Below are positions 4,201 to 29,744 of a stretch of 35,585 nt of DNA, piece after piece. The notes beneath the pieces were generated by a model. That model was not told the DNA's origin. It searched no databases and worked only from the letters and a program-made list of their open reading frames with translations. The position numbers and the translations under genes were made by a program. This DNA is from Candidatus Woesearchaeota archaeon. Its GTDB lineage: Archaea > Nanobdellota > Nanobdellia > Woesearchaeales > DSVV01. Each line of letters starts with the position of its first letter. The first letter of the stretch is position 1. The DNA lies in the NCBI GenBank assembly GCA_016205905.1, contig JACQSP010000090.1:1-35585 (forward strand), in the 5' to 3' direction.

Positions 4201-4743
4201 TTTGGTAGATTCTTCTAAAACAATACCTTGTGCGTCAACAAGCTCTTTGCTTATCATCTTAAACTTGCCTTTTCTGCCGCAGTTGCATCTGCTTGGCTCC
4301 TTAAACTTTTTCTCGAGCTGAAGAACGGGAATAATATTGCCGCAACTGGGGCATTCAAACCTTGCAGAAGTTACCTGCGGCCTTACATCAGACTTTTGCC
4401 TTACAACACCTTCTGTCCAGATAAATTTGCCCAAATGATTGCTTCTGATATTTCTTATAAGAATATATTGTTCTTTTGGCAGATTTTTTACCCTGACTGT
4501 TATTTGTTTTATATCGTTTGCATTCTCGCCCAAATCAAAATTTTTTATGGCAAGCTCAAATGCTTTAATAGTTTCTTCTGGCTTGTCAAGCAATTCTTCA
4601 GAAACATCTAAATTAAACTTGCACAACTCCTGAAAATCTATAATGAGAACATGTTTGCCCTGCCTTACATTTTCAAATAGCTCTGTTTGGCAGTTTTTCT
4701 CTACAAAATCCTGAAATTTAGTGATTACTTCGTTTACTTCCAT
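1273..4743 (-). CDS. mcm: MCM replicative helicase, intein-containing precursor (1156 aa; 676 aa after splicing)
   Basis: Zn finger CPSCG...CNCG, Walker A GDPGCGKS (aa 325-332), Walker B ILMVDELDKM, AAANP, arginine-finger SRFDLIF and a C-terminal winged helix. The conserved SGKG-V/S-GAGLTAAVV motif is split by 480 aa. Confidence 0.97.
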   Translation of the reverse strand: MEVNEVITKFQDFVEKNCQTELFENVRQGKHVLIIDFQELCKFNLDVSEELLDKPEETIKAFELAIKNFDLGENANDIKQITVRVKNLPKEQYILIRNIRSNHLGKFIWTEGVVRQKSDVRPQVTSARFECPSCGNIIPVLQLEKKFKEPSRCNCGRKGKFKMISKELVDAQGIVLEESTKDMEGGEQPKRINIFLKNDLVSPMSEKRTNPGNNIRVVGIIKEVPIILKTGGQSTKFDLLIEANCVEGVEEDYSNIEISAEDEERIKVLASDPLIYEKLTSSLAPGIFGHDRVKEALCMQFVGGVTKHREDGVKTRGDIHILLIGDPGCGKSQILKRASVVAPKARYVSGKGVSLEYNESLLIKDNNNLQIIKIGEFVDAHSENKENVFVPLKKNILALSLNNDTKKLEWKPISCVFRHTTDDKLLKFYLESGREVTVTKDHSIYTIENGKIMVKTSQELGTNDYVLIPKKIIIEDEKEPKIDINIDSGANDLKAQKNISMIDKEYARLLGYFIAEGHLHAKEKEYYKVEFTLGKKDTAIVKDLQNIVKNKFNKEISINKHGENGLRLVIHGKESYTTFVKLLGDVAHKHAKEKRIPQIIFNSNTEMQQEFIEAYIKGDAGVTKSKELASDLLYIFLYNKKIASLTKKFCDKITVINGRNVHNYGYVYELKSPKEGKQFDNRYERPPYKKFGEVLSNYFFKNVKTNKSTRITTNTLSNTMLLNRFCSIAQEGVVNGNELRKRFGESILEYIGEHSTLFNKQKEGRQIQVTITEEGDKLISELIDFVGFMNSDVGFVRIKKIEEVENKHKYVYDISVPENENFVAGFGGIICHNSGAGLTAAVVKDEFLSGWSLEAGAMVLANKGILMVDELDKMSPEDRDAMHEGLEQQSVSISKANIQATLRCETTVLAAANPKLGRFDPYGTIAGQIDLPPTLISRFDLIFPIKDLPDEEKDTQMAKFILELHKMRNTEEPDIPTELLRKYLVYAKQRMSPQLTDAAIEELRDYYVQMRSSGATEGKGIKTIPITARQLEGLVRLSEAYAKLRLGDKVTRKDAKKAKAMLEYCLQQVGMDPETGKIDIDRISTGVSTTERSRIVIVRELINELEETLGKNIPLQTVIDAAKEKGIEEDKTMELIEKMKRNGDLFEPKRGEIQKI
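2245..3684 (-). mobile_element. Intein (480 aa, MCM aa 354-833) with LAGLIDADG homing-endonuclease domain
   Basis: Begins with Ser (GKGV|SLEYNESLLI) and ends IICHN|S with +1 Ser. Block B TKDH. Two LAGLIDADG motifs, LLGYFIAEGHL and FIEAYIKGDAGV. Removing it restores YVSGKGV-SGAGLTAAVVKDE. Confidence 0.9.
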
Positions 4744-4812: not shown

Positions 4813-5017
4813 GTATTTGTTTAGCTGATTTCTTTTTTATATCTTTTTTATCGCTCTCAACACGTTTGTGGGCGCAGCCACCCGTCTCATGAATTATTAG
4901 TTATTCGTTCTTCGTCATTCGTAACTAAGAACGAAAAACGAATAACAGTTCTATCATGAACGAATACCTGTTTTATCCTAATGAATCGGTGGCTTCGCCT
5001 TATCACTAAACAAATAA
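4813..5017. mobile_element. Family-1 MITE (205 bp) with 8-bp target-site duplication
   Basis: Terminal inverted repeats GTATTTGTTTAG (4813-4824) and CTAAACAAATAA (5006-5017), 11/12 complementary. Flanked by perfect direct repeats AATAATTA (4805-4812 and 5018-5025). Inner inverted pair GGCGCAGCCACC/GGTGGCTTCGCC. Central hairpin 4900-4915/4931-4946 (15/16). Confidence 0.8.
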
Positions 5018-5723: not shown

Positions 5724-5755
5724 TAACTATCTCATATTTAAATACTGTGTTTTTT

Positions 5756-5848
5756 AAAGGTAGGAAAGTAAGAGGTTTGAGGTAAGAGGGAACAACTACG
5801 AGATTATCATCGTACCTCTTACCTCTAACCTCTTACATCTAACTCTTT
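5756..5848. repeat. Family-2 palindromic element
   Basis: Left arm AAAGGTAGGAAAGTAAGAGGTTTGAGGTAAGAGGG, core AACAACTACGAGATTATCATCGT, right arm ACCTCTTACCTCTAACCTCTTACATCT. Lies in the divergent tbp/thiI-like spacer. Confidence 0.75.
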
Positions 5849-5893
5849 AATAAACATTATTAATATCCACTATATAACACCCCTTGATTTCCG

Positions 5894-6991
5894 ATGGAAC
5901 TTACCTCAACTAATATGGATTTGTGTATAATAAGGTACGCAGAAATAGCATTGAAAGGCAAAAACAGGCAATTATTCGAGAAAAAGCTAGTTTACAATCT
6001 AAAAAACTGTTTAAAGTTAAATAAATTGCCTTTTGCTGAAATAAAGCGTTTTGAAGGCAGAATTTTTGTTTTTATAGATAAAAATAACGATTTAGATTTA
6101 AATAACCCTAAAAACCATGATTTAAACACAAATACCCAAAAAAAAGAGGGGTTAGAATCAAATCCTTACTCCTTACTAGCTAACGTGTTTGGCGTTTCTT
6201 CTATTAGTTTCCCTGTTGAAAGTACACTTACACTTGAACCTATCCAAACAGCGATAGACAACCTTATCAAGGAGAGAATTAAAGATAAAGTTAATGGCAA
6301 GAACTTTAACACATTTAGGATTACTACAAAGAAACTTGACCAAACTATTTCTAAATCGTCGCATGAATTCGATGTTGAGCTAGGCAGTTATGTTGAAACT
6401 ATATATAAAAAAAAGGTTTCTTTGAAAGAGTTTGATCTTAATATACAGGTTGAGCTAATTCATGGCAAAGCCTATGTATTTTTAGACAAAGTTAAAGGTG
6501 TTGGTGGTTTGCCATATGGTATTGAAGGCAGAACATTGGCTCTGGTAAAGAACAAGCAAGACCTTTTTGCTGCTTTATTAATGATGAAACGAGGGTGTGC
6601 AGTTGTTTGTTTAACTCTTCCTAGCCTCGAATCAACCTTGAGAACCACATTTCTTAATTACGGCGTTAAACCAAAAATTATAAATGTTAATGCCTTTGAC
6701 AATGAAAAGATAGATGAAATAAAATTTAAAGAAAATATAGAAGATATCACTAAACATCATAAAATAAAAGAATTTGATAAAATAACAATAACCGAAACTA
6801 CTAAATTTCATAAAACAGAAGAATTTGATAAAAGAACAATAGAAGAAATTGCTAAATTTCATCAAATTGAATCAATTGTCACTGGGCAAACATTAAATAA
6901 TTTCAAACCATTAACCAATCTGGTTGAGTTCAGGCCATTGATAGGGATGGATGAAGGAGAGATTAGGTGTAAGATTAAAGAAATGATATAA
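5894..6991 (+). CDS. ThiI-like protein (N-terminal ferredoxin-like + THUMP domains) with degenerate PP-loop domain
   Basis: N-terminus IIRYAEIALKGKNRQLFEKKL is typical of ThiI. GVGGLPYGIEGRTLAL is followed by VKNKQD where ThiI has SGGxDS. The C-terminal VTGQTLNN...FRPLIGMDEGEI resembles ThiI TGEsLGQVaSQT...RPLig.dK.EI but lacks SQT. Confidence 0.6.
   Translation: MELTSTNMDLCIIRYAEIALKGKNRQLFEKKLVYNLKNCLKLNKLPFAEIKRFEGRIFVFIDKNNDLDLNNPKNHDLNTNTQKKEGLESNPYSLLANVFGVSSISFPVESTLTLEPIQTAIDNLIKERIKDKVNGKNFNTFRITTKKLDQTISKSSHEFDVELGSYVETIYKKKVSLKEFDLNIQVELIHGKAYVFLDKVKGVGGLPYGIEGRTLALVKNKQDLFAALLMMKRGCAVVCLTLPSLESTLRTTFLNYGVKPKIINVNAFDNEKIDEIKFKENIEDITKHHKIKEFDKITITETTKFHKTEEFDKRTIEEIAKFHQIESIVTGQTLNNFKPLTNLVEFRPLIGMDEGEIRCKIKEMI
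6746..6871 (+). repeat. In-frame 51-bp (17-aa) tandem repeat, about 2.5 copies, inside the ThiI-like CDS
   Basis: ITKHHKIKEFDKITITE / TTKFHKTEEFDKRTIEE / IAKFHQIE (aa 285-326). Confidence 0.8.
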
Positions 6992-7375
6992 AGTGAATAA
7001 ATTGTTTTATTAATATACCAATTCTTAATTGTTTATTCATAAATCTGAAGTATAATCTGTTATAATTTATTTATTGAATTATGAATTATTATTAATGAAT
7101 CAGTATAGTTAATGTTTATTTATTGCTCACTACTCGTTTGTTGGTTGTGGTAGGCTGTTGGTCGTGGACATCATCCCACAATTATTAACGTCGTCCGTTA
7201 TACGACAAACGACATACGACAAACTCGTTTCTGACCACTGAAACCTGACATTAATATGTCCACTGGTTTAAAAGCTCTAAACTCCTCAGCAGTTAGCTCA
7301 ATAGGGCTTTTAATAGATGTCCACTGGACAAGTCGGCGTAAGGTTTATATAGATAGCTGGTTTTACAGTCAACTT

Positions 7376-7768
7376 ATGAAAACTGACAATATTCATAATG
7401 CGTTGGTTGTATTTGAAGGTAAACAGATTAGGCGAGTCTGGGTTGATAACCAATGGTTCTTCTCTGTAATTGATATAATCAGAGTATTAACAGAAAGTGT
7501 TGATGCTAAAGATTATTGGTATAGGCTAAAGCAGAGAGAACAAGAAACAAGTGATGTTCAACTATCGACAATTTGTCGACAGTTGAAACTCCTTGCAGAA
7601 GATGGCAAACTTAGAGAAACTGATTGTGCCAATACAAAAAATATGTTTAGAATAATTCAATCAGTTCCTTCCCCAAAAGCAGAACCGTTTACTATTCAAA
7701 AATTCCGAGACACTGTCGCAGAAATTGTCTTGAAGCCACTACTGCCTTTTGCTGAGGAGAGACAATGA
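7376..7768 (+). pseudogene. Truncated Bro-N domain protein (homology ends about 7690)
   Basis: MKTDNIHNALVVFEGKQIRRVWVDNQWFFSVIDIIRVLTES...DYWYRLKQRE...LSTICRQLKL...FRIIQSVPSPKAEPF matches the N-terminal half of the common ~270-aa Bro-N family. The expected KLWLAKVGYERIEE continuation is absent. The 40 codons upstream of M41 (7256-7375) look non-coding. Confidence 0.6.
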
Positions 7769-7889
7769 CTTTGCACGCCAGTTTTATCTTGTTGAAACTG
7801 AAAAAGAATTTTGGAGTGTAATGGAACTCGACAGGCAAATAAGTTCAATGCTGTATGAAAGGCTTGCCTTAAGCAGTGAAAAAAACAAA
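7752..7889 (+). pseudogene. Fragment of a DUF1016/YhcG-type protein (N-terminal domain only)
   Basis: LRRDNDFARQFYLVETEKEFWSVMELDRQISSMLYERLALSSEKNK fits the YhcG N-terminal pattern (FY..E.....WSvReLeRQI.S.LfERLaLSkdK). No PD-(D/E)xK nuclease part follows, and the frame runs into a repeat arm. Confidence 0.5.
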
Positions 7890-7969
7890 TTAAACAATCA
7901 TAGTGAACGAATGGCTTCGCCAAGGAACGAAAAACAAACAAAAAGAACAGATAATAATAATTCACGACC

Positions 7970-8533
7970 ATGCAAGACATAGTATTCCCCAAACACAACG
8001 AGAAAGAGTTCATTGAAATAGCTGAGAAACTAAGCTATGATGAGCTGTGCTTCTTATACCCTATCGAAGAATTCTTACCCAAACCTAAACAATCTTTTGA
8101 AACAAACATAAAAGTTAGTTATGGCATTTTCTGCTCTTCTTCACAAATACAAAAAGCGAAACAATTGGCTAAATTTGTCGTCGTTAAAGCTGATGAGAAC
8201 CAAAGAAGAATTATTGAATCCTCACCATCAATAATAATTGATTTAGAATCCATTTCTGCCAGAGATTCATTTCATTACAGAAACTCTGGCCTGAACCAAG
8301 TTTTGTGCGGGTTAGCAGCAAAGAATAATGTCAGCATAGGGTTTAATTTTAATTCTGTTCTTAATGCTTCACAGCATGACAGAAACATTATTTTGGGGAG
8401 AATGAAACAGAATATCAACCTCTGCCAAAAATATAAAGTTAGAATGGGGTTTGGGAGTTTTGCGAGGACACCTTACGAGATGAGGAATTATAACGATATA
8501 ATTGGGTTGTTTAGGACGATTGGGCTGCGATGA
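7970..8533 (+). CDS. rnp3: RNase P protein component 3 (Rpp30/Rnp3)
   Basis: 187 aa. The C-terminal ...NVSIGFNFNSVL...RNIILGRMKQNINLCQKYKVRMGFGSFARTPYEMRNYNDIIGLFRTIGL fits the Rpp30 TIM-barrel C-terminal pattern. Confidence 0.7.
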   Translation: MQDIVFPKHNEKEFIEIAEKLSYDELCFLYPIEEFLPKPKQSFETNIKVSYGIFCSSSQIQKAKQLAKFVVVKADENQRRIIESSPSIIIDLESISARDSFHYRNSGLNQVLCGLAAKNNVSIGFNFNSVLNASQHDRNIILGRMKQNINLCQKYKVRMGFGSFARTPYEMRNYNDIIGLFRTIGLR

Positions 8534-8537
8534 TAAT
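8408..8537 (+). repeat. Direct repeat copy A: last 41 codons + stop + 4 nt of rnp3 (att-like)
   Basis: Aligns without indels to 10384-10513 (offset 1976 bp), with about 18 mismatches in 130 by hand count. Confidence 0.85.
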
Positions 8538-8740
8538 ATACTAAAAGTGCAAAATAATATATCGTTATACTAACACATTTCACACATTACACCCATTATA
8601 GCTTCTTCGTTATCAATAGTTTCAAATATGCATTTTGGACGCATTTCAAGCCGCAACACCCACATTATACTAACACATTTATGCTAAGTTTTTCAAATTA
8701 TAACTCTTTATCTCTAACTAAACCGCAACATTTATATAGT

Positions 8741-8788
8741 TGAACATATTTATACTAGTATGAACATATATAAATCAAGGTGAACATA
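8741..8788 (+). promoter_or_regulatory. Three TGAACATA iterons at exact 20-bp spacing over the promoter, SD and start of the AbiEi-like gene
   Basis: TGAACATA at 8741-8748, 8761-8768 and 8781-8788. TATA-like TTTATATAG at 8731-8739. SD AAGGTGA at 8777-8783. Confidence 0.5.
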
Positions 8789-9412
8789 ATGCTTATTACA
8801 AATGGAATGCAAAATATTATTCGTGTTTTGCTTAATTATAAAAACAAGGGTTTTACAACAAGGGAATTAGCTAAAGAAGCGAATGTATCTGTGGGGTTGA
8901 CTGTAAAACTTCTTAGTTCTTTAGCTGCAACAGGCTACATTGTTAAAAAACCAAAGATTAAACTAACCTCATTTAAACTGCTTAATGCGTGGGCTTATAC
9001 AACAAGCATAAAAGAAATAAGCCAGTTATCTTTTAGCGCTGCTGAACGACCAGAATATTTATTTAAAAAAATATCGCTTATTGCAGCGCAAAATAATCTC
9101 AACTATGCATTTACATTATACAGCGCAACAGAATTCGTTAGCCCTTTTGTAGTTCCTAACACCCTAGATTTTTATATTTTAAACAGTGATAAAGAGAAAT
9201 GGGAAACCAGTTTAGTCAAACACAATATTTTTCCAGCAGAAAAAGGGAATATAACTGTTTATCTTGTGGATAAAGATTATTTTTATAATCTTCTTGAGAT
9301 AAATGGCAACAAAATCATATCTTTGCCTCAGTTATATGTTGATTTGTTTTCATTAGGTGGCAGGGGTGAGGAAGCAGCGCAACAGCTTCTTAAGGCAATG
9401 GACAAAGTTTAG
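8789..9412 (+). CDS. AbiEi-like wHTH antitoxin/transcriptional regulator (putative)
   Basis: N-terminal wHTH FTTRELAKEANVSVGLTVKLLSSLAATGYIVKK. C-terminal ISLPQLYVDLFSLGGRGEEAAQQLL resembles the AbiEi C-domain. ATG at 8789 is preferred over the track's GTG at 8780 because the SD AAGGTGA lies 5 nt upstream. Confidence 0.5.
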   Translation: MLITNGMQNIIRVLLNYKNKGFTTRELAKEANVSVGLTVKLLSSLAATGYIVKKPKIKLTSFKLLNAWAYTTSIKEISQLSFSAAERPEYLFKKISLIAAQNNLNYAFTLYSATEFVSPFVVPNTLDFYILNSDKEKWETSLVKHNIFPAEKGNITVYLVDKDYFYNLLEINGNKIISLPQLYVDLFSLGGRGEEAAQQLLKAMDKV

Positions 9413-9500
9413 ACTTTTCATTTCCTGAATAAAACTATGACCCGCCTACAAAAGAAATGCAAAAGTTCAAAAAGTATGGTGTTCATAAAATAGAAAGAAT

Positions 9501-9632
9501 GTATTTGTTTAGCATCTTCAAAATTCCGTATGAAGTTTCGCAGAGGTGACATCCCTGTATGGGGCAAGTCCCCCTGTCACCTTTGCAATTAGGCTCAAAA
9601 TAAATTTTGGCCTTATGATGCTAAACAAATAC
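9501..9632. mobile_element. MITE (132 bp) with family-1 termini, perfect 16-bp TIRs and an 8-bp TSD
   Basis: GTATTTGTTTAGCATC (9501-9516) is the exact reverse complement of GATGCTAAACAAATAC (9617-9632). Flanked by GAAAGAAT at 9493-9500 and 9633-9640. Internal GC-rich hairpin GCAGAGGTGACA/TGTCACCTTTGC. Confidence 0.85.
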
Positions 9633-9669
9633 GAAAGAATATAATTTATTATAATTATGGTGATAAAAC

Positions 9670-10380
9670 ATGTATGATACTCATGAAACAGAAACATCAA
9701 AGAAGTATATGTATGAATTACTAAAACATTCATCTTCAATTAACATAGCTTTGATTGGTGGTTGGGCAGCATACATTTATGTCAATTCTAATTATAGAAA
9801 AGCATTTGGTGTGGATTATTTGATGTCAAGAGATATAGATGTCTTTATTGATGTTAAGCATGAAAAGAGGTTTGCTGACCTCATAAAAAACTTAGGATTT
9901 CAAAAAAGCGCATATCCTTTTAGGTATGAAATCATTTATGATAAAGCATCAAACAAGATAATTACGCAAGAGCAAGCTAAGAAGCACCACATCTTTAATT
10001 TGTTCTACATCTTTTTAGATTTATTCAGCAATAAACCCACAAAACTGCTTGGAACTTGGTGTATAGATTCTTTAAATAGCTCTAAACGAATATTTATAGA
10101 TAATATTCCTGTTTTAGATATAAATTCTCTTATTTTATTAAAGGCAACATCTTTTTTTGAAAGAGAGAAGTTAGACAAAGAATTAAAAGATGCGTGTGAT
10201 TTATACGCGCTTGTATTTTATTCAGAACAAAACCCACAATTAACTGAATTGCTTAAACATGCTTTAGACAAGATATTAAACAGACAAGACTTGTGCGAGT
10301 TTATCTCAGAGCAAGTGTTAAGGGATTCATTAAAGGCAGGCATTGTAAAACGAACGATTAGTAATTACTTGAGTAAATAA
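9670..10380 (+). CDS. AbiEii/DUF1814-like nucleotidyltransferase toxin (putative)
   Basis: LIGGWAAYIY...MSRDIDVFID fits the GG.A...R.(S/T).DID NTase motif. The downstream LILLKATSFFEREKLDKELKDACDLYAL fits K..A...R....KD..DL. SD GGTGA lies 6 nt upstream. Confidence 0.5.
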   Translation: MYDTHETETSKKYMYELLKHSSSINIALIGGWAAYIYVNSNYRKAFGVDYLMSRDIDVFIDVKHEKRFADLIKNLGFQKSAYPFRYEIIYDKASNKIITQEQAKKHHIFNLFYIFLDLFSNKPTKLLGTWCIDSLNSSKRIFIDNIPVLDINSLILLKATSFFEREKLDKELKDACDLYALVFYSEQNPQLTELLKHALDKILNRQDLCEFISEQVLRDSLKAGIVKRTISNYLSK

Positions 10381-10383
10381 TTT

Positions 10384-10513
10384 CAGAACGTCAACCTCTG
10401 CCAAAAATACAAAGTTAGAATAGTTATTGGAAGTTTTGCAAGAGCACCATATGAGATGGGGAATTATAATGATATTATTGGGTTGTTTAGGACGATTGGG
10501 TTGAGATGATAAT
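10384..10513 (+). pseudogene. Direct repeat copy B: orphan 3' fragment of rnp3 (41 codons + stop, no start)
   Basis: Encodes QNVNLCQKYKVRIVIGSFARAPYEMGNYNDIIGLFRTIGLR*, versus QNINLCQKYKVRMGFGSFARTPYEMRNYNDIIGLFRTIGLR* in the intact gene. Begins 3 nt after the NTase stop codon. Confidence 0.85.
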
Positions 10514-10543
10514 GTTTAATAATATTTCTTAATACTTTTGAAA

Positions 10544-11200
10544 TTAATCAATCTCTCCCTCATTCAATTCGCTACTTGTGCAACTAGCGCCAAAATCATT
10601 TTTTATTTTAGCAGTATCACCTTCATCTGATAATGTTCCTGCGTACACACCATTACAGGTTGTAGTTACCTGTGGACTCCACCAATTAAAACTACCATCT
10701 TTTGCCCCACAATATAAAACAACACCATCTTTACTTTCTTTATCGCTATCATAACATAAACCATATATCTTTAGTTTTGGAACTGTTTGTGTGTCAATAT
10801 TATGAGTGAAAGAAAGCGTTATTTTATTTTGGTCTTTTTTCAATATTACTTTATTTATTGGCTTGAAATAGCTAACCTTATCCTCAACTAAAATATCAGG
10901 AGTTGCGCTTGGCGCACTAAAAATATTACTATCACTGTAATAATAATTAGATTCTATCTTTTCCTCTTCCCCATACTTTAATTTACATTTTGTACTGTCA
11001 GTTATCTCTGTCACAGTCGCTGTTACTTTTTTTTCGAATCCACTAAAAAAACCTTTTTCTGTTGAATAATATCCATCTAAACCACTCACTTTCCATGAGC
11101 AGCTCGTAGTCATTGCATCGTCTTCACTATCTGCGCTGCTAATTACAGTCAGTACTAATAAAAAGATTAAAATAAATAATACGAGTATTACCTTTCTCAT
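10544..11200 (-). CDS. Exported Cys-containing protein, unknown function
   Basis: 218 aa. N-terminal signal MRKVILVLFILIFLLVLTVISSA followed by an acidic stretch. Abuts the upstream ORF (11201), suggesting an operon. Confidence 0.6.
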   Translation of the reverse strand: MRKVILVLFILIFLLVLTVISSADSEDDAMTTSCSWKVSGLDGYYSTEKGFFSGFEKKVTATVTEITDSTKCKLKYGEEEKIESNYYYSDSNIFSAPSATPDILVEDKVSYFKPINKVILKKDQNKITLSFTHNIDTQTVPKLKIYGLCYDSDKESKDGVVLYCGAKDGSFNWWSPQVTTTCNGVYAGTLSDEGDTAKIKNDFGASCTSSELNEGEID

Positions 11201-11590
11201 CTAAACCTCTTCCTCTCCAGTTTCTTTAACTTCTTCAACTGCTTTTTCATCTGTTTCAACTGGTTTTATCAATCCATGCTCATACGCGCAGTTATACACC
11301 TTTACCCATGTCGGCATATTTTTGCATTTCTCTTTTATCATCTCGTCATAATAACCATACTTAAAAAGTAATCCGCCAACAATTAATATTACTATTAATG
11401 TAATAGCTACTCCTACCCATACTTTAGGAGAAGGATGTTTATGCTGAGGATATTCTTCTGCATCAACATCTTTTAATGCGTTATTTACTTCATCCTCTGG
11501 CCATTTTGCTTTAAGAAGCGTTTCTTTTATCTCTTTCTTGGAAAAGCCTTTACTTAGCTCTTTTTTGATATATTCTTCTATATTTGTCAT
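11201..11590 (-). CDS. Single-pass membrane protein, unknown function
   Basis: 129 aa. About 45-aa charged helical N-terminus (EYIKKELSKGFSKKEIKETLLKAKWPEDEV), TM segment VWVGVAITLIVILIVGGLLF and an acidic C-terminus. Confidence 0.6.
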   Translation of the reverse strand: MTNIEEYIKKELSKGFSKKEIKETLLKAKWPEDEVNNALKDVDAEEYPQHKHPSPKVWVGVAITLIVILIVGGLLFKYGYYDEMIKEKCKNMPTWVKVYNCAYEHGLIKPVETDEKAVEEVKETGEEEV

Positions 11591-11688
11591 TAATTATATT
11601 TTTGCAAGAATGAGTTTTAATATTTTACTGTTTATAACATCAATATTTCAATATAATTTATCAATAAATGCTTTAAGAAGTCTTTTGT

Positions 11689-12024
11689 CTATTTGCACAC
11701 ATAATTTACTTTCTGGTCAGTTCCTTCAATGTTCTGATAATGAAATATACCTTTTATTTTCTGCTCTTGAATAATATCCTTTATTTTCACAGTCGAAGAA
11801 TTAATTATTTTGAGGTTTGCCTTATTTATTGTATCTAGTGTAACAATACAGTTTGTAAACGTCCCATTATTTGCAATCGTGAACCAAATCTCATCATTAG
11901 AATATTCTGATTTAAAGAATTCAATGTTTTTCGGAAGATAAACTGCTTTGCCAGTTATTAAGTTACTACAGCCTGTCAAAAATATTAATATCAACACTAT
12001 GATGGAAAATTTAATAATCTTCAT
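11689..12024 (-). CDS. Small lipoprotein-like exported protein
   Basis: 111 aa. MKIIKFSIIVLILIFLTGCSN is lipobox-like (LTGC). TATA-like AACTATATATAG lies about 25 nt upstream. Confidence 0.55.
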   Translation of the reverse strand: MKIIKFSIIVLILIFLTGCSNLITGKAVYLPKNIEFFKSEYSNDEIWFTIANNGTFTNCIVTLDTINKANLKIINSSTVKIKDIIQEQKIKGIFHYQNIEGTDQKVNYVCK

Positions 12025-12196
12025 ACTTCAAGTTAATCATTTTAACTATATATAGTTTGTGTTAAAATTTGCGAAAAATCGTGGGTAAATCAGAAACTTT
12101 TATATATGTATTAAATGGGAATAGTTATTAATAGATATAATACTAAATGTATTACTTTTATATCACTTAATAAAAATCAACAAAAAGAGGAAAATT

Positions 12197-15100
12197 ATGA
12201 TAAAAAAGAGAAGATTAATTTTTTTATTTTTGGCAGTACTATTATTAATAATATTAATAATCGTTAGCTCATCAGTTTTAGGGCTTCTTATTCCTCAATC
12301 AGGCAAACAAGTAGGTGATTTAAGCGTAATTGAATCTTACAAAGGCACATCACGATTGTTTTTAGAACTGTTTGTGGGTTGTTTGAGAGAGCAAGATGGA
12401 AATTATATTGGTGCGATACCACACTATAATTCAAGTTTGTTGTTAGACCAAAAAATAAATTTTCCAGATGAGAAGATATATCCAACACCTAAATTTAATA
12501 CGCCGTGGGGAACAGATGATGATAATGATGGTTTCTTAGAAGAAATAATTGGTAATGGTATTGAAGAGATTCCTAAATTAGAAGTTCCATGGCAGCAAGC
12601 ACCTAAATCATATTTGTATGAAGGCAATTGTTACTTGTTTGCTAATTATTGGCATCAATTCTGGAACAAAGGAGAAGAAGTGACACAAAACGATGAAGCA
12701 TTTAGTGTGTTAAAAGAAGATGAATTATATAATGATGATGGAGACAAAACAAAAATAAATGCTGTCGCTCAAATTGACGAATCCAAAGGTTTAGAAGCTC
12801 CGTTTAAAGGAGCGTATTATGTTAGTAGTGATGATTATTCTTATAACGTTTATTGGGAAGGCACTCAAGACAGTGAAAAAACTTGCGAAAATTATGGTGG
12901 ATACTATAAAGATGTAGGCGGCAATAAAGTCAAGAATTGTTGCGGCGACGATTATCTTTGGATAATGAACAGCGTCTATAATTTTGATGGTGATAAAGAA
13001 GGTAAGTCTGTAGATGAGCTTTGCTTGTATGGTTATGTTGACCCAGACACAGGCGAGCCATTAGTAGAATCTTCAGAATCACAAATATACCATACATCTG
13101 CAAAAGTAGGAAATCATCCTTACAGAAACCAAATCTATTGCACTCCTTTGGCAGCAGTTGGTGAAGTATCAGATATACATTACTCTTATGATATTAACAA
13201 TTATGATCCACAAAGCACAACAGAACAGAGAAGATTATTTGTTTATAATAAAGATTCACCAACAACAACAGCAACAGATGTGGGATTGTGGAAAACAGAT
13301 ACTTCTGCTAATTATTGTACACATTATTTTTCAGATAAAACAAATGGTGAAGTAAAAAAAGGAGATAACTTTGAATGGTTAACACCAGAAAAAGCAGGTG
13401 AGATAAATTATTTTGGCGTTGGTAATGGTGGTGCAACAGCTTTTGATAAAGACAACAAACCATCTATTATAAATAAAAAATTCATATTAAATCCTAAAGC
13501 CCCAGACTACATTTACGACGTCATGACCAAACAATTATCTGGTGATAATTACACAGATTCAGATGATTTCACTATTTGTAATTTGTTCTTAGGTGGCACA
13601 TGGACAGGTCATCATTGTTGTGGAAATAAGTATAAAGATGGAACAAAACTTCTTGAAAATTTTAATGATGAAGGAACAGCAAGCAGTATTGATACTGAAA
13701 AAGGAGAGCATTATGTTTTAACCAAGAATAGATTAAAAGCATACAGCCTAAGCGCAGAAATAGAAAGCGGTGAAGTATGGAAAGAGCCAAATAAAGCATG
13801 CTACCAAGGAGAAGCGATGGAAAGTGGCGAGATAAGGAATACCCCTAATAAGTTATCTATTATTAACAAAAAGGGTGAACTTAACTTGTGTTATAATATT
13901 GACGGTCAAATTGACGGTTTACAAGCCATAACTGGTAAAAGTTATGACTTTGAACAATTCAAAGAGAGTGATAATAATTATTTGTTTAATAATGATCCTC
14001 TTACAAAAGATAATGTGATTAGCTCTTGCGGCTCTTTCTATCTCAAAGCCGGCGATGATTTAGTTAGCACAAACAACCGTTTCGCCTACTGCTTCACAAA
14101 CAATACTTGGCTAAGTTTTGATATTATGCCAGAGGATTATGCAGAAGGTACAAACCCTGAGTTTGATATATTGGGAAGATATCCTGCAGAAGGCGATGTA
14201 TTGCACGAATCAGGCATTAATGATGATTTTAAACTTATTAAAAATATGAAAGTTAAATCTGACAAAGGCTGCTGTTTCCAAGGAGATTGTTGGAACGGAA
14301 ATAGTTGTACAGCTAACGGCGCTACAGTTATTGACAAATATGTTGATCCAAAAAAAGTTTATCTCTGCGCAAACGGAGAATGGACATCTGGCGAAGCATC
14401 ATTTAACTGGTACGACGAGAAATTTGCAGGCGAAACTGATCCTTCTCAAACAGGATTAGCATATTGTGTGGATAAATGGTCATGTGCCTGTCCTGAAAAA
14501 GATGCTTATAACTTAGGCGATGAAGATCAGCATGAGATAGACATTTGCGAAACTTATACACAACCTAATTCTCAGTGTACACGAGAGCCTGCGATGTTTA
14601 TCGGCGACAGATTCTGCGAGCCAGAATTTGTGAAAAAAGATGGCGATGGTTATGACTTTAAAGATGCTTCAACAATAACCTCATCACAATGGACATCCCG
14701 AACAACCTATCTCGCAACAGCATTGTTAACCCTCGCGCAACAAAAGAGTTCAAATGAATTTACTTTACAATGCGACACCCCAAAAAGTGTTCTTAACTTT
14801 TACAACCTTGACTTTGCAAAGGATTTGTTTGTGACAGAGCAGGATTATAATAATTTCTGTGCCCTAAAACTTAAAAATAGTGATGGTGATGAGGAGATTT
14901 ATTTAGGCACAACATTAAACCCGCAATTAAAATATGATGAAATACCCGAAGAATTATACCAAACCAAAGAAATCTCTGAGTTTGAGCAATGTACAGACGA
15001 CACTAATTGTATTCAATGCACAGAAGATGACACTAATTGCATTGGTTATGGCTGCTACAAAAAACCAGCTGCCAATGTTGGACAATGTGTTAAACAATGT

Positions 15101-15943
15101 TATGATGATAGTGATTGTGATGAAGGTGAAGAATGTTTTACAGCTGAAGAAGTGCCAGAAGGAGAGATTAAAATAGGTCTTTGCGCTCCAACCTCTGCAA
15201 AAGATGTAGACATGTTTAATATTGAAAATTTAGGAGAATTGTTTTACGGAACATCTGATACAACAGGATTATTAAACAATGAATTCTTGTTTAAATTAAC
15301 CAGCAAGAAATTTGCTGAAGATGAATGTAAAACTATTCTTGAAGGAACTAACCCGCAAAACGGAAATGGTGATGATTTCTTACTCTTTAAAACCTGTGAT
15401 AATGATAATATTGCTTTTAATAATTTTACAAAAGCAATGATATTTAGTAACAATTCGCAAGATGAGAACTTTTTGACTTTAACATACGACGAAGTGACTA
15501 ATAATAATTTAATTAATAATGTTAAGGATATAAAAGATTATTATAAATATGAGGATAACAAAGACAAAATCGCAGAGAAAAAGGAGATGGATATTATTAA
15601 CTCTATATCTGATTTAGATAAAATTTACTATGCACGAAAAGAAGATGGTGATAAAACAATTTTTGGTGTTCTTGAAAGAAAATCTGACCCTGATGCATCA
15701 GGCGATCCCTCTTCAAAGTTAAGATATTTCGCTGTTATTATGTACAAAAACATATTTACAGACAACAAGGTATGCACCGAGCTTGAAAAGACCTCGCCTC
15801 TGCTTTATTGCGGATACAAAGATTATGGCAATGGTGCAACAACGGTTGTAATTATCATTCCATCAACACCAGACTACGACGGCACAGAAGATGCAGTCAT
15901 GAATTATTGGCCAGACTTGACTGCGAAGATTAGATTGAAATAA
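12197..15943 (+). CDS. Giant Cys-rich exported/surface protein 1 (1248 aa)
   Basis: Uninterrupted 1248-codon ORF. Signal-anchor MIKKRRLIFLFLAVLLLIILIIV. Recurring CC motifs NCCGDDYLW, HHCCGNKY and KGCCFQGDCWNG. Cys-dense block QCTDDTNCIQCTEDDTNCIGYGC...QCYDDSDCDEGEEC. SD-like AGAGGA lies 5 nt upstream. Confidence 0.8.
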   Translation: MIKKRRLIFLFLAVLLLIILIIVSSSVLGLLIPQSGKQVGDLSVIESYKGTSRLFLELFVGCLREQDGNYIGAIPHYNSSLLLDQKINFPDEKIYPTPKFNTPWGTDDDNDGFLEEIIGNGIEEIPKLEVPWQQAPKSYLYEGNCYLFANYWHQFWNKGEEVTQNDEAFSVLKEDELYNDDGDKTKINAVAQIDESKGLEAPFKGAYYVSSDDYSYNVYWEGTQDSEKTCENYGGYYKDVGGNKVKNCCGDDYLWIMNSVYNFDGDKEGKSVDELCLYGYVDPDTGEPLVESSESQIYHTSAKVGNHPYRNQIYCTPLAAVGEVSDIHYSYDINNYDPQSTTEQRRLFVYNKDSPTTTATDVGLWKTDTSANYCTHYFSDKTNGEVKKGDNFEWLTPEKAGEINYFGVGNGGATAFDKDNKPSIINKKFILNPKAPDYIYDVMTKQLSGDNYTDSDDFTICNLFLGGTWTGHHCCGNKYKDGTKLLENFNDEGTASSIDTEKGEHYVLTKNRLKAYSLSAEIESGEVWKEPNKACYQGEAMESGEIRNTPNKLSIINKKGELNLCYNIDGQIDGLQAITGKSYDFEQFKESDNNYLFNNDPLTKDNVISSCGSFYLKAGDDLVSTNNRFAYCFTNNTWLSFDIMPEDYAEGTNPEFDILGRYPAEGDVLHESGINDDFKLIKNMKVKSDKGCCFQGDCWNGNSCTANGATVIDKYVDPKKVYLCANGEWTSGEASFNWYDEKFAGETDPSQTGLAYCVDKWSCACPEKDAYNLGDEDQHEIDICETYTQPNSQCTREPAMFIGDRFCEPEFVKKDGDGYDFKDASTITSSQWTSRTTYLATALLTLAQQKSSNEFTLQCDTPKSVLNFYNLDFAKDLFVTEQDYNNFCALKLKNSDGDEEIYLGTTLNPQLKYDEIPEELYQTKEISEFEQCTDDTNCIQCTEDDTNCIGYGCYKKPAANVGQCVKQCYDDSDCDEGEECFTAEEVPEGEIKIGLCAPTSAKDVDMFNIENLGELFYGTSDTTGLLNNEFLFKLTSKKFAEDECKTILEGTNPQNGNGDDFLLFKTCDNDNIAFNNFTKAMIFSNNSQDENFLTLTYDEVTNNNLINNVKDIKDYYKYEDNKDKIAEKKEMDIINSISDLDKIYYARKEDGDKTIFGVLERKSDPDASGDPSSKLRYFAVIMYKNIFTDNKVCTELEKTSPLLYCGYKDYGNGATTVVIIIPSTPDYDGTEDAVMNYWPDLTAKIRLK

Positions 15944-15974
15944 TACACACAATAATATTAATAGAATGAATATG

Positions 15975-16154
15975 ATATTTTTTTAGTTCCTGGGCGAAGC
16001 CACCCGTCTCATGAATAATAATAACTGTTTGTCGTAAGTCGTTTGTCGTTGGTCGTAAACAAAAAACGAAAAAAACAGCTGACGACTTACGACCTACGAC
16101 TAACGACTTACTCGCTCTTTGCTTCGCCTTTGAACTAAAAGAACTAAAAAATAC
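15975..16154. repeat. Family-1 variant palindromic element with GTCGTNN heptad arms
   Basis: Ends ATATTTTTTTAGTTC and GAACTAAAAAATAC are inverted. Contains GGGCGAAGCCACCCGTCTCATGAA. Left arm GTCGTAA GTCGTTT GTCGTTG GTCGTAA (16031-16058) pairs with CGACTTA CGACCTA CGACTAA CGACTTA (16083-16110), about 22/24. No TSD seen. Confidence 0.7.
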
Positions 16155-16184
16155 AATTAAACCATAAAAAATCAAAAATGCACC

Positions 16185-18482
16185 ATGAACAAAACATCCC
16201 AACTCGCAATCTTTATGATTCTTGGAATTGTGTCTGTTATTCTCATAGGTTTGGCATTATTCGGCATTTCTAGCTCGACAGAAAAAGGTTTTGTAACAAA
16301 ACAGTCCCAATTAGGAGAGCTGTTTATCGGCAAAGGTAAATATACTACTTACATTAAAAGCTGTCTTGACCAGGCAACAAAACAAGGTTTAGTATTAGCA
16401 GGTAAACAAGGCGGCGCAATTTATGATAATCAGACCATTGGCGGTAAACAGTCGCAGACAAGCAAATATTATGAATTAGATGGTATAAGAATACATTATT
16501 CATTGCTTTCTCCAACAATAATTAAATTGCCAGAATATCCTTATATTCCAAGTACAATAACATTAACATCTTCCCCTTTTCTAGCTCAAGAACCTTCTAT
16601 TTATGGTGTACCAACACCATTTATTAGTGTCATTAATAATCCGTTCATACCTTTATGCGACAGGTTTGGCCCAAACAATGACCCTAAATCTAATGTGCCT
16701 TACTGCGGCAATGCACCGTACATTTTTGACACTGAAAACATTAACGATCATAACTCTGTCCAAGAATATTTAGGTAAATACATCACGCAAAAAACAAACG
16801 AATGCATAAAACTCGAAACACTGCCAGAGCTTCAAGGATATAACATTATTAAACAAAATTTCAATGTAGACATTATTTTGACAGAATCATCTGTTGTTGC
16901 TAATCTTAACATGACGTTGGCATTATCAACACCGCAGTCAACATTAAAAGAAACCCTGCCGGTGATAGATATCAGCGGTATTTCAGTAGAGAAACATATC
17001 AGGCTAAAACACATATTTGAATTATTGGCAAGAATGAGGCAGGAAGATTCAAAGAATATATTTTTCGAGATAACTAATGCGCAGACATTAAAAACTTGCG
17101 GTCCAAACGAAAATTTGCAGTGCTTAAAGCCAGGAATGATTGTCTCAACCCAGAAATTACCAAATAATGATTATGTTGTCAAGATTACTGACACAGAATC
17201 ATTGATTGACGGAAAGGAGTTTAGTTATCAGGTAATCTTTCAGAATAGAAACCCAACTTTAGATTATTTAACTGCACCAAACTTAAATCCAGAATTTTCT
17301 GATTACAATGCTGTTCTTGTCGAGGGAATGACTCTTGTAATAGATCCTTATGGATATGATCCTGACGAGGATAATCATGAGCAGGGGTTTATGAAAGATT
17401 ATTATTATTACGAGGCAGTTGATGGTTATACTAAATTTGATGCAGACAAGGATAATGACGGAGTGATTGATTGTATTCCGACGACAAACAGCGGTTTAGA
17501 CGGAATAAAAGATTCATTAAAAAGCTGCCTTGTGCAAGACAAGCTGCCGTCAGCATTCAAGGGAAGAAAAGTAACTTATAAACTAACACAACATGATGCC
17601 GGCGAACATATTATCCGAGTAAAAGTCTGCGATAATACAAACAATCCCAAATGTGACTGGCAGGACGTAAAGATTTTTGTTATTCCATTGTTGGCTTTCG
17701 GTACAGATCAGAACGGAAATCCTTTTCCTTTTGATTCAACCAAAGATTACCAAATCTCGGGTTATCCAATTTATTCAACTAATCCAAGTGATACTGTAAC
17801 TTTAGGTGTAAAACAAACAATTACTTCAGAATCATTATTAACACCACAACCACAAGAACCAACTTTGCCTGACACAGAAAACACAGAATCACAACAAGGA
17901 TCAGAAACACAATCAGGAGATGATACTCAAGATTCATCACAATCTTCTCAACCTTCTTCACAACAAGGATATTCTTCGCCAACACAACCTTCAACACATT
18001 CATCCTCGCAACAAACCACACCAATAGTCACGCCAACTATACCTTACGATAACACCGACGTTGATATTCTTATTTCTAGAGCATTAAGCGGCACAAAACT
18101 GCCTTACGAAATGTATTACTTTGAAAACAAATATCTTATAGTGAAAAACACTATTAATAACCAAGGTCCAGAAGTTGTGCCAGAAACAGACGCATTTAGA
18201 CAGTTCGCTGAAAAAGGCGATAATGGAAAACCTAACTTATACATACAAAAAAAGATTTATGGTACCAACCAGCAAAGCGCACTTAACCAAAAGTTAGCTA
18301 CAGGAAAAAACCTGTTTTTTATTTACATCCCTGAGCCATGCACACAAGGAGCGTTCTTCCAAGGATACTGTCATTTTGGTGACAAATGTTATTATAATAT
18401 GAACATAGTTAATCATAATTTTCAAACAGCGTGGGACAATTGTCCTTCTGCAAAACTCTGTACAGAAACAGGGTGTAAATAA
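16185..18482 (+). CDS. Large exported protein 2 (765 aa) with pilin-type N-terminus, Ig-like/Ca-binding-like motifs and an S/T/Q/P linker
   Basis: MNKTSQLAIFMILGIVSVILIGLALFG. DPYGYDPDEDN and DKDNDGVID (DxDxDG-like). Low-complexity TPQPQEPTLPDTENTESQQGSETQSGDDTQDSSQSSQPSSQQGYSSPTQPSTHSSSQQTTP. Cys-rich C-terminus. Confidence 0.75.
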   Translation: MNKTSQLAIFMILGIVSVILIGLALFGISSSTEKGFVTKQSQLGELFIGKGKYTTYIKSCLDQATKQGLVLAGKQGGAIYDNQTIGGKQSQTSKYYELDGIRIHYSLLSPTIIKLPEYPYIPSTITLTSSPFLAQEPSIYGVPTPFISVINNPFIPLCDRFGPNNDPKSNVPYCGNAPYIFDTENINDHNSVQEYLGKYITQKTNECIKLETLPELQGYNIIKQNFNVDIILTESSVVANLNMTLALSTPQSTLKETLPVIDISGISVEKHIRLKHIFELLARMRQEDSKNIFFEITNAQTLKTCGPNENLQCLKPGMIVSTQKLPNNDYVVKITDTESLIDGKEFSYQVIFQNRNPTLDYLTAPNLNPEFSDYNAVLVEGMTLVIDPYGYDPDEDNHEQGFMKDYYYYEAVDGYTKFDADKDNDGVIDCIPTTNSGLDGIKDSLKSCLVQDKLPSAFKGRKVTYKLTQHDAGEHIIRVKVCDNTNNPKCDWQDVKIFVIPLLAFGTDQNGNPFPFDSTKDYQISGYPIYSTNPSDTVTLGVKQTITSESLLTPQPQEPTLPDTENTESQQGSETQSGDDTQDSSQSSQPSSQQGYSSPTQPSTHSSSQQTTPIVTPTIPYDNTDVDILISRALSGTKLPYEMYYFENKYLIVKNTINNQGPEVVPETDAFRQFAEKGDNGKPNLYIQKKIYGTNQQSALNQKLATGKNLFFIYIPEPCTQGAFFQGYCHFGDKCYYNMNIVNHNFQTAWDNCPSAKLCTETGCK

Positions 18483-18611: not shown

Positions 18612-18811
18612 ATGTTCTGTTTTTTAATCTTATTTTCCGTTTTCAACTCGTTCTAGGGACGAAGTCCACGTCCACAAATAAAGGTAAGAAGTAAGAGGTT
18701 TGAGGTAAGAGGTACGATGATAACCTCGTAGTTGTTCCCTCTTACCTCCTACTTCTTACCTTTTACCTTTTTTTCATAAGACGTGTGGCTTCGCCTAGGA
18801 ACTAAAAAAAT
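18612..18811. repeat. Composite repeat: family-1 shell enclosing an inverted family-2 core; outer ends approximate
   Basis: Shell blocks CTAGGGACGAAGTCCACGTC (left) and GACGTGTGGCTTCGCCTAGGAACTAAAAA (right) are inverted. The interior 18679-18774 is a full family-2 element whose core (18704-18739) is the reverse complement of the other three. Confidence 0.7.
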
Positions 18812-18897
18812 AAAAAAAGCAATTACTTATTCCCTCGTAACCAGATAAAAACAACATATTTAAATAGTATTAATTAATAGATTAATAGTTATATACT

Positions 18898-25825: not shown

Positions 25826-25913
25826 ATATACTAAAAGTGTAAAATAATCGAACATTATTTTGCACTTTTGTATATACAAACGTGATTAATTTGTACGAAA
25901 ATTAATCACGTTT
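25826..25913. repeat. Two adjacent perfect or near-perfect hairpins just downstream of the giant gene (possible terminator or mini-palindromic element)
   Basis: HP1: ATATACTAAAAGTGTAAAATAAT (25826-25848), loop CGAAC, ATTATTTTGCACTTTTGTATAT(A) to 25876. HP2: AAACGTGATTAATTT (25878-25892), loop GTACGA, AAATTAATCACGTTT (25899-25913), 15/15. Confidence 0.7.
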
Positions 25914-25923
25914 AGTATATAAT
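25911..25923 (+). promoter_or_regulatory. Candidate TATA/promoter motif TTTAGTATATAAT for the first pilin-like gene
   Basis: The same 13-mer occurs at 28598-28610 upstream of 28641. It lies about 35-37 nt upstream of the ATG, and the SD AAGGTGA lies between motif and ATG. Confidence 0.4.
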
Positions 25924-26488: not shown

Positions 26489-26609
26489 AAAAAGGTAAGA
26501 AAGTAAAGATTAAACAGTTAAAAGTAAGAGTAGGGGGTAAGGGGGAACAACTACGATGTTATCATCGTACCTCTTACCTTATACCTCTTACTTTTTACTT
26601 CTTACCTTT
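26489..26609. repeat. Family-2 palindromic element
   Basis: Core GGGAACAACTACGATGTTATCATCGTACCTCTTACC (26543-26578). Starts 3 nt after the stop of 25956..26486. The left arm carries a short insertion (GATTAAACAGTTAA). Confidence 0.75.
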
Positions 26610-26651
26610 AATTCCATCCAATTATTCAACTAACTTACAGTTTCAAATACC

Positions 26652-27751: not shown

Positions 27752-27956
27752 ATATTTGTTTAGCATTAATGTTTTTTTACTTTACACAATTTTACTACAT
27801 ACATTATATTATTGCTCACAGCACGTTTGTGGGACGCAGTCCCCGTCTCATGAAAAATCTTAAATTTTTTTTAAATGGCTGTATAAAAAACCCCCTATTA
27901 CCAACTAATAAAGCAAATAAAAACTTAAAAGCATCAAATAATAACTAAACAAATAC
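27752..27956. mobile_element. Family-1 MITE (205 bp) with 8-bp TSD (7/8)
   Basis: Ends ATATTTGTTTAG (27752-27763) and CTAAACAAATAC (27945-27956). Flanks TATTGATT (27744-27751, containing the upstream gene's TGA stop) and TATTAATT (27957-27964). Left block ATTGCTCACAGCACGTTTGTGGGACGCAGTCCCCGTCTCATGAA is present; the right GGCTTCGCC block is missing. Confidence 0.75.
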
Positions 27957-28584: not shown

Positions 28585-28596
28585 CCTTTTTTATAC

Positions 28597-28610
28597 TTTT
28601 AGTATATAAT
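28597..28610 (+). promoter_or_regulatory. Candidate TATA/promoter motif TTTTAGTATATAAT
   Basis: Shares TTTAGTATATAAT with 25911-25923. Centre lies about 35 nt upstream of the ATG at 28641. Confidence 0.4.
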
Positions 28611-28640
28611 CAATCAAATAATTAATAAAAATATGTAAAA

Positions 28641-29655: not shown

Positions 29656-29744
29656 TTAATTAGTTTATTTTTTTAAGTTTACTTTTCTAATAAAACTATT
29701 AAAAAGATATTAATCAGATAACCAAACACCATTTTTCTGTTAAC

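Follow-up and report, generated by a model that had tools for sequence, protein, structure and literature searches.

A miniature transposon of groundwater Woesearchaeota with exchangeable cores, often hairpins armed with heptanucleotide repeats

The window analysed here, 35,585 nucleotides of contig JACQSP010000090.1 (assembly GCA_016205905.1) from a Candidatus Woesearchaeota archaeon, contains at positions 15975–16154 one copy, E4, of a small non-coding transposon of groundwater Woesearchaeota. The element is previously undescribed among the literature searched, which describes no repeat family or elements for Woesearchaeota. Its outer shell is a lineage-specific miniature inverted-repeat transposable element (MITE) with the testable hallmarks of that class, and the hairpin at its centre, whose arms are tandem arrays of 7-nt units, is a module separate from the shell. 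On balance, we think it probable that two non-coding layers are nested in one another, a MITE shell and heptamer arrays in palindromic arrangement, the arrays being resized by slippage and exchanged by recombination. The element looks selfish or neutral; it has the look of neither a novel RNA nor a defined protein-binding device. The tiny genomes of DPANN archaea are generally called streamlined; despite this image, many of the gene gaps examined, in the 35.6-kb window and in partial loci of a sister genome, are filled by layered, apparently selfish repeats.

Source genome and data sets

The window has archaeal gene content (MCM with an intein, TBP and an RNase P p30 gene) and a GC content of ∼34%, and E4 sits between two large genes on the same strand. 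In the window, the shell word GGCGMAGCCACCCGTYTCA is found without mismatch at three positions (4871, 15993 and 29632). Among 185,579 species genomes, chance matches in GC-rich bacteria aside, the same word was found in one Woesearchaeota metagenome-assembled genome (MAG) only, which comes from the Rifle aquifer (JAGVYH01, 19 loci). The scan did not return the window, and hence the genome of the window differs from the Rifle MAG. The latter, referred to below as the sister genome, is syntenic with window positions 5836–16653 at 78–92% identity. The main data set consists of the window and the 19 sister-genome loci, 184 kb in total. Copies were counted by exact-word scans of public collections, a census that is partial and biased to copies with intact shell words.

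The arms of E4 are tandem heptamer arrays

The layout of E4 is given below, with window coordinates and strand.

15975–15986, + strand: left terminus ATATTTTTTTAG, a diverged form of the family terminus GTATTTGTTTAG
15993–16001, + strand: A-type mini-hairpin GGC-GAA-GCC (GGCGAAGCC) with a GNA triloop, in the left subterminal shell, preceded by TTCCTG
16002–16014, + strand: inner shell ACCCGTCTCATGA
16031–16058, + strand: left arm, four heptamers GTCGTAA GTCGTTT GTCGTTG GTCGTAA (lag-7 identity 0.72, P = 0.0004)
16059–16081, + strand: apical loop ACAAAAAACGAAAAAAACAGCTG, 23 nt, A-rich
16082–16111, + strand: right arm, ACGACTT ACGACCT ACGACTA ACGACTT (16082–16109) then AC (lag-7 identity 0.74, P < 0.0002)
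16120–16128, + strand: degenerate right mini-hairpin TGCTTCGCC; the right inner shell is lost
16132–16154, + strand: right end, the duplicated unit GAACTAAAA (two copies) running into terminus CTAAAAAATAC; Tandem Repeats Finder (TRF) gives a period of 9 and 2.0 copies at 16132–16149

An original prediction, made from the letters of the window, had described the arms of E4 as tandem arrays of 7-nt units, and this is borne out by the sequence, by TRF, which reports period-7 arrays at 16027–16056 and 16082–16111, and by the autocorrelation at lag 7. The predicted fold joins the arms in helical stretches of 10, 5 and 8 bp, separated by two 1 × 1 mismatches. Folding as single-stranded DNA and as RNA, which had been proposed as a check, gave −32.4 kcal/mol for the DNA (z −5.6 in comparison to shuffles) and −59.8 kcal/mol for the RNA (z −7.5), in either form a far better fold than that of the shuffles.

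The prediction of similar arrays at other named sites of the window likewise stood, with period 7 by TRF throughout, and period 8 at 213–235. Besides E4, the period-7 arrays lie at 4894–4922, 7202–7224, 18682–18714/18738–18768, 1236–1268, 5768–5840 and 26568–26609. Periodicity was tested statistically by autocorrelation, taking the maximum over lags 2–12, with the limits of the arms picked after inspection of the sequence. Lag 7 was best in 13 of the 15 window arms and lag 8 in both arms of copy E1 (this and the other copies are listed in the last section). The shuffle P was ≤0.0064 in 12 of the 15; the degenerate left arms of the stand-alone copies c1, c2 and c3 gave P = 0.12, 0.54 and 0.04, respectively. 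Across the 184 kb, TRF returned 33 arrays of period 7 with 2.8 or more copies, where first-order Markov shuffles gave 2.3 on average; for period 8 it returned 10, against 1.1. The periodicity is thus real and statistically solid. The small number of units per arm (3–5) would leave some room for a chance pattern in AT-rich palindromes, but with the excess of arrays, with lag 7 or 8 best in every arm and with the same arrays recurring in a second species, the probability of such an explanation is close to nil.

The shell is a MITE

The family has 12-bp terminal inverted repeats, GTATTTGTTTAG/CTAAACAAATAC, which bound 20 candidate elements when up to two substitutions are allowed. Among these 20 inverted terminus pairs, which lie 90–420 nt apart, target duplications of 8 bp were perfect in five cases and had one mismatch in four; we estimate the chance of a perfect 8-bp match at ∼3e-5 per pair at this base composition. 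Words of the shell are strongly over-represented in the window, with four occurrences of GGGCGMAGCCACCCGTYTCA against 0.00 expected, and 11 of GGCTTCGCC (at most one mismatch) against 1.7 expected.

Alignment of 56 ends resolved two subterminal end types of about 45 nt, A and B. Type A reads GTATTTGTTTAG-TTCC-NN-GGCGMAGCC-ACCCGTCTCATGA, where NN is TG in one reading, and type B consists of GTATTTGTTTAG, ∼30 nt and then CGCTCWCAAC-NCGTTTGTG-GGACGMAGTCC-ACCGTCTCATGA. The pairing of the mini-hairpin is kept in both forms, as GGC-GMA-GCC in A and as GGAC-GMA-GTCC in B, the stem of which has gained an A–T pair. A third end variant, GGCATGTCC, is without this pairing. The ∼20-nt unit TTTYCGCTCWCAAYNNGTT, found in the outer flank of B ends and repeated in tandem two to three times (L012 ∼990–1040, L021 ∼3840–3900, L041 ∼2490–2540 and L043 ∼1255–1300), is a second internal tandem repeat of the MITE.

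All 56 shell cores in the 184 kb lie outside open reading frames (ORFs), and the copies, in elements of 130–250 bp, occur in both orientations. No orientation rule with respect to the neighbouring genes was found among the shell ends, since an A end has the 3′ end of a gene before it in 20 cases and a gene start in 14, and a B end in 11 and 7, respectively; a role as terminator or leader that would depend on gene orientation was rejected on this ground. The termini, the 8-bp duplications, the location outside ORFs and the lack of an orientation rule together identify the shell as a MITE, which is presumably moved in trans by a DDE-type transposase.

Candidates for a parent element did not hold up. 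Terminus pairs 420–4000 nt apart and inverted repeats of at least 17 nt lying 600–3500 nt apart proved to be pairs of neighbouring MITE ends, together with one unrelated 22-nt repeat around ordinary genes. In E4 itself the target duplication has been lost (TGAATATG vs AATTAAAC), and the sister-genome copy at the same site has the terminus GTATTTTTTTAG. No empty site was seen, both of the orthologous sites available (E3 and E4) being occupied in both species; the insertions therefore predate the species split. In the metagenome of the source community, contigs break at the element and the summed depth rises about 60–120-fold, a figure that is not a copy number. Such elements break metagenome assemblies and can be mistaken for RNA genes.

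Several other identities were considered and rejected. Neither shell end matched any viral contig in the exact-word scans, which argues against a viral origin of the shell. Some ends read CATGATGA, as in a C/D-box small RNA; inspection by eye, however, showed a partner side that is fully paired and free of CUGA, and the box itself is missing from most copies. Integron attC sites, CRISPR repeats, tRNA-like elements and tmRNA were discarded in view of the absence of R′′/R′ cores, repeat arrays and tRNA.

The periodic hairpin is a separable core

Copies of the shell share their ends and differ in their centres, as had been claimed earlier, and this is seen directly at two orthologous sites (82–92% identical in the sister genome) and in metagenome contigs with three different cores. 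At the E4 site, window and sister genome agree in the flanks and in the left end through ...GTCTCATGAAT, with no mismatch from TATTTTTTTAG on; the stretch TATTTTTTTAGTTCC...CATGAAT (about 15976–16016) is free of mismatches and the flanking spacer differs. Beyond this point, the sister genome continues with AT-rich filler of unrelated sequence and then a double-hairpin module. The E3 site, where the flanks and one end are again retained and the core is unrelated, is occupied in the sister genome by a simple element of ∼120 nt from which the insert seen in the window is absent. In the metagenome contigs, one and the same left end leads into TTGAAAG-type, GGTAAGA-type or AT-rich interiors. These sites provide an example of MITE ends that persist across a species split while the core is replaced, and the resident interior was replaced and not split, so that recombination through the conserved ends fits better than insertion.

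The periodic units fall into about six families: GTCGTNN (E4 and four Rifle copies), GGTAAGA, AGGTGCT, the octamer TTGAAAGC, TATTCGT, and the one-armed GACGTAA and ACGACAA. The original prediction of a different sequence in each copy is therefore correct between families and incorrect within them, where both the units and the order of the unit variants are shared; a 20-mer of the E4 loop is also found in four sister-genome copies. The GTCGT core occurs with the end pairs A/A, B-flank+A/A, B/A and B/GGCATGTCC. Conversely, the GGTAAGA hairpin is found without a shell at three window sites and in another Woesearchaeota MAG (L049), and within a shell at E5, and the AGGTGCT hairpin stands alone in an operon spacer (L066 6950–7045). 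The periodic stem is thus a module separate from the shell.

The association between the two is frequent and far from exclusive. A shell core is found no more than 160 nt away from 31 of the 43 non-redundant arrays, and GC-containing arrays of 7- or 8-nt units are present in 12 of the 33 non-redundant two-ended shells (13 when the sub-threshold L054 is counted); E4 stands outside these 33, its right core being degenerate. The remaining two-ended shells hold AT-rich fillers or other small hairpins. A census with most copies lacking the period had been named in advance as grounds for taking the pattern as chance. Most shells in the sister genome do lack it (∼60% are without a periodic core), and periodicity as a feature of the shell has to be given up, while chance is still excluded for the arrays themselves.

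Behaviour of the arms and loops

In its usual form, the module consists of facing arrays of 3–5 heptamers (octamers in one family) around a loop of 18–33 nt. Between paralogous copies, array length changes in steps of whole units. Three GTCGT units make up the left arm of L054, against four in the other copies (−7 nt); relative to L033, L024 is short of one left unit (−7 nt) and the right arm of L111 is shorter by 14 nt. The differences fit the slippage-driven growth of stems that had been proposed earlier, slippage being the likely generator of steps of this kind. In addition, the AGGTGCT hairpins have their apical loop in either orientation with respect to the shell, four of the seven shell-borne copies one way and three the other.

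Both strands of the 21 modules examined fold about equally, with no consistent bias, and neither a G–U versus A–C asymmetry nor a strand difference in energy was found as a signature of RNA. Compensatory double changes were seen in none of 25 pairs in the AGGTGCT family. All 18 inverted array pairs, some of them from redundant loci, are only 18–33 nt apart, and no array pair encloses a gene in about 400 kb. A gene-bearing, IVS-like palindromic cassette was rejected accordingly, as no arms enclose an ORF and the insert in E3 is one-armed only. Rfam gave no matches at the gathering score, and a scan with an E-value threshold gave a sole match, of 18678–18772 to a plant miRNA hairpin, with 33 bits in comparison to a gathering score of 72. 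The resemblance of AGGTG and GAGGT to a ribosome-binding site, which might suggest Shine–Dalgarno mimicry, is limited to two of about six families and is probably a coincidence.

Origin and maintenance of the periodic hairpins

The whole-unit indels, the loop flips, the equality of the strands and the lack of compensation, of an enclosed gene and of an Rfam match lead us to favour a palindrome at the DNA level that is shaped by slippage and arm exchange. In such a scheme, the arms would be heptanucleotide simple-sequence arrays that arise and resize by slipped-strand mispairing in whole-unit steps. Their mirror symmetry would be kept by template switching or by recombination between the arms, which would also flip the loop, and homologous recombination or gene conversion, acting through the conserved ends, would be the main route by which cores pass from one MITE copy to another. 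No dedicated reader protein would be needed, and a reader specific for the structure or the loop, although conceivable, finds no support in the data.

Several observations weigh against this scheme. Slippage alone leaves unexplained why both arms are arrays, and one-armed arrays do exist (L045 and E3). The 5-nt unit cores (GTCGT, GGT) are invariant, with spacers that vary in a fixed order kept among paralogs and between species, which is the pattern that iterated binding sites would show. Furthermore, the motif TCGTA[AC] stands at the junction of arm and loop in every hairpin family; TCGTA[AC]C occurs eight times in the window against 2.7 expected, five of these at apices, of which four are homologous copies. 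The tips of the GGTAAGA and AGGTGCT hairpins are alike (CGAT..ATCGTAMC), on arms that differ. The invariant cores, the junction motif and the shared tip would all be explained by shared ancestry in which the arms changed in concert, or else by a site that is recognised, and the junction motif in particular hints at one or the other. With regard to the shell, about 400 kb searched yielded no autonomous transposon ending in these termini, so that the mobilisation of the shell is deduced from footprints only. Moreover, the census spans only part of the genome of one relative, and the sequencing runs containing the locus are DNA runs only.

The invariant unit cores with varying spacers and the apical TCGTA[AC] shared by families with unrelated arms (GGTAAGA, AGGTGCT, TATTCGT and TTGAAAGC) could also mean that the heptamer-armed hairpins are themselves mobile or maintained by an enzyme, in the manner of REPIN/RAYT or IVS systems, with a protein reading the apical loop CGAT..ATCGTAMC and/or the 5-nt cores and the MITE serving as landing site or vehicle. 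Shell-less copies in two species and loop states that flip and flop, as in hairpin-resolved replicons, agree with this idea, which we regard as possible although doubtful. However, about 400 kb yielded no candidate enzyme gene and no gene-enclosing array pair, and the hairpins have neither target duplications nor a fixed insertion site. Likewise, the tally of compensatory changes within a family stands at zero, the core at the E4 site took the place of the resident interior and did not insert into it, and in the exact-word scans the modules turned up in no viral contig and in no genome outside this lineage except one further Woesearchaeota MAG. The stronger claim, that the hairpins form a distinct palindromic class whose enzyme recognises CGAT..ATCGTAMC and lays down or reads 7-nt steps, with the MITE as a mere carrier, is less likely still; if it were true that the hairpins have their own enzyme, they would represent a new kind of mobile element.

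A structured RNA, acting as a 3′-end stabiliser, processing site, terminator aid or small-RNA precursor, with the periodicity as tolerated variation of a stem, would account for the stable predicted folds (the RNA value for E4 given above, and −20 to −69 kcal/mol for two-armed cores) and for the several G–U pairs of the consensus fold. Many copies lie just past stop codons, 31 ends facing gene 3′ ends and 21 facing starts; the hairpin at 1174–1271 starts 2 nt after the MCM stop, and T-rich termini face incoming transcription on both sides. Nevertheless, we consider an RNA role unlikely, with a smaller chance than either form of the mobile-hairpin idea. Neither strand is consistently favoured in folding, copies occur in both orientations and in divergent promoter gaps too, no compensatory changes and no Rfam family were found, the target duplications show that the shell came by transposition, and the runs in which the locus was found are all DNA runs. 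Finally, inverted arrays of short repeats inside the ends are the expected remnant of an internally deleted transposon, and 8-bp duplications indicate a cut-and-paste type of element, as if the heptamers were subterminal binding sites of the MITE's own transposase (like Ac/Ds and En/Spm) brought together by internal deletion of the parent. This is very improbable, in that at least four unrelated unit sequences are found behind one and the same set of termini, and the commonest case is a shell with no array at all; units so diverse cannot bind the shell's own transposase. The arrays are, moreover, central, 45–90 nt inside the ends, and the same arrays occur without any termini.

Comparison with known repeat systems

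The element resembles the prokaryotic MITEs (Neisseria Correia/NEMIS, pneumococcal RUP, cyanobacterial Nezha and the SM type of Sulfolobus; PMC10969869) in being small, non-coding and intergenic, with terminal inverted repeats, target duplications of fixed length (8 bp here), many copies in both orientations and folding of the whole element into a hairpin. It differs in its A and B ends with the GNA-triloop mini-hairpin, in its DPANN host, in that the parent insertion sequence was not found, and in its centre, a swappable and often heptamer-armed palindrome that is found outside the MITE as well. Pneumococcal BOX elements (boxA-boxB(n)-boxC) and enterobacterial BIMEs are likewise mosaic intergenic repeats with conserved outer modules and a variable inner module. 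Unlike the present element, they lack the combination of terminal inverted repeats and target duplications, and the units inside them measure 35–45 nt in contrast to 7 nt; nor is their inner module a pair of inverted short-unit arrays.

REP/REPIN sequences (RAYT, a Y1 transposase) are also palindromic, hairpin-forming intergenic doublets that are non-coding and have a small conserved hairpin in each half. However, they make no target duplication, carry a conserved GTAG beside the hairpin and come with a RAYT gene in the same genome. Here, the sequence just 5′ of the mini-hairpin is variable (TGTGG, CCTGG, CTAGG, CCAAGG), with no fixed GTAG, and the shell makes 8-bp duplications; membership of REP/REPIN was rejected for these reasons.

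The core, judged by its repeat units, resembles known heptameric simple sequence repeats (SSRs), namely the STRR of Calothrix and Nostoc, GGGAATC of Xanthomonas and TAACTGA of Beggiatoaceae (PMC4692102; PMC4679880), which are intergenic tandem 7-nt units in few to several copies whose length varies between relatives. As in the STRR type, head-to-tail 7-nt intergenic units above chance and variation of unit number among paralogs were found. Those genomes have essentially one unit each, mostly in direct arrays, whereas about six unit families coexist here, with arrays that nearly all face a partner across a loop and for the most part lie within a MITE; the palindromic arrangement, the several unit families per genome and the carriage by a MITE set the present core apart. 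Occasional inverted pairs that could form stem-loops have been reported for the Xanthomonas arrays (PMC4692102). Passages in two papers, both citing Mrazek 2007, describe heptamers as the over-represented class of long SSRs in prokaryotes and give polymerase slippage as the proposed cause (PMC4679880; PMC4692102). The present arrays extend this long-noted and unexplained excess of heptanucleotide repeats from bacteria to archaea, and they offer a natural example of mirror-image simple-sequence arrays with flipping loops.

Other copies and neighbouring repeats

The other members of the family and the related hairpins of the window are as follows.

161–374, + strand: E1, with B end GGACGCAGTCC at 184–194, A end GGCTTCGCC at 348–356 and terminus CTAAACAAATAC at 363–374
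211–239 and 250–278, + strand: 8-nt arms TTGAAAGC of E1
4813–5017, + strand: E2, a complete MITE of 205 bp with the perfect 8-bp target duplication AATAATTA
4894–4922 facing 4924–4952, + strand: arms of E2, TATTCGT/TCTTCGT/CATTCGT
7120–7952, + strand: E3, left core replaced; one-armed ACGACAA array of three units at 7202–7224; right A end at 7913–7921
18640–18826, + strand: E5, with B end at 18657–18667, GGTAAGA-type hairpin at 18680–18772 and A end at 18787–18795
1174–1271, + strand: stand-alone GGTAAGA/TACCTCT hairpin without a MITE shell, just beyond the MCM stop codon
5751–5848, + strand: stand-alone GGTAAGA-type hairpin between the divergent TBP and ThiI-like genes
26490–26615, + strand: stand-alone GGTAAGA-type hairpin between two genes on the same strand
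27752–27956, + strand: MITE of 205 bp with duplication TATTGATT/TATTAATT, B end at 27832–27842 and an AT-rich core without heptamers
9501–9632, + strand: MITE of 132 bp with family termini, the perfect duplication GAAAGAAT and an unrelated GC-rich hairpin core, without the mini-hairpin shell
29625–29658, + strand: solitary A-type end (half element)

The homologue of E1 in the sister genome lies at L021 3670–3854. The insert of ∼650 nt in E3, in the region 7256–7982, contains a 170-aa Bro-N ORF (PF02498, E 1.4e-8), followed by a C-terminal fragment of DUF1016_N, and, from these domain matches, looks like captured or decayed cargo. The MITE at 9501–9632 has a perfect 16-bp inverted terminus and lies inside an AbiE-like cassette region behind the RNase P p30 gene. 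In the spacer of the sister genome that matches window 5751–5848, upstream of the ThiI-like gene (L074 5990–6170), there is a non-periodic palindrome of ∼170 nt, TATGTGCATAGC...GCTATGCACATA, and synteny with the window is lost upstream of it.

A double hairpin, TATAGCAAAGGCA..TGCCTTTGCTATA plus GTGGACTTTAA..TTAAAGTCCAC, is present in or beside MITEs in several copies with covarying stems, at the following sites.

L007 7560–7660
L021 2090–2185
L023 6100–6200
L037 4860–4940

An unrelated palindromic repeat, ATATACTAAAAGT...ACGTTTAGTATAT around two small hairpins, was found at window 25826–25920 and also at 8536–8568, 28573–28612 and 33486–33516, and a 13-mer of it occurs six times against 0.14 expected. 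Its 98-nt copy is 96% identical to the sister-genome loci L048 4613–4710 and L007 3533–3626, with genes at only 82–88%, a sequence comparison that suggests recent spread or strong constraint.

Two neighbouring genes have internal features of their own. The intein of the MCM helicase gene (1273–4743, − strand) has a LAGLIDADG endonuclease domain (PF14890, PF14528). The ThiI/THUMP-like gene holds a 51-nt tandem repeat at 6728–6866 (2.7 copies, 77% matches), in frame and with 17 codons per unit.

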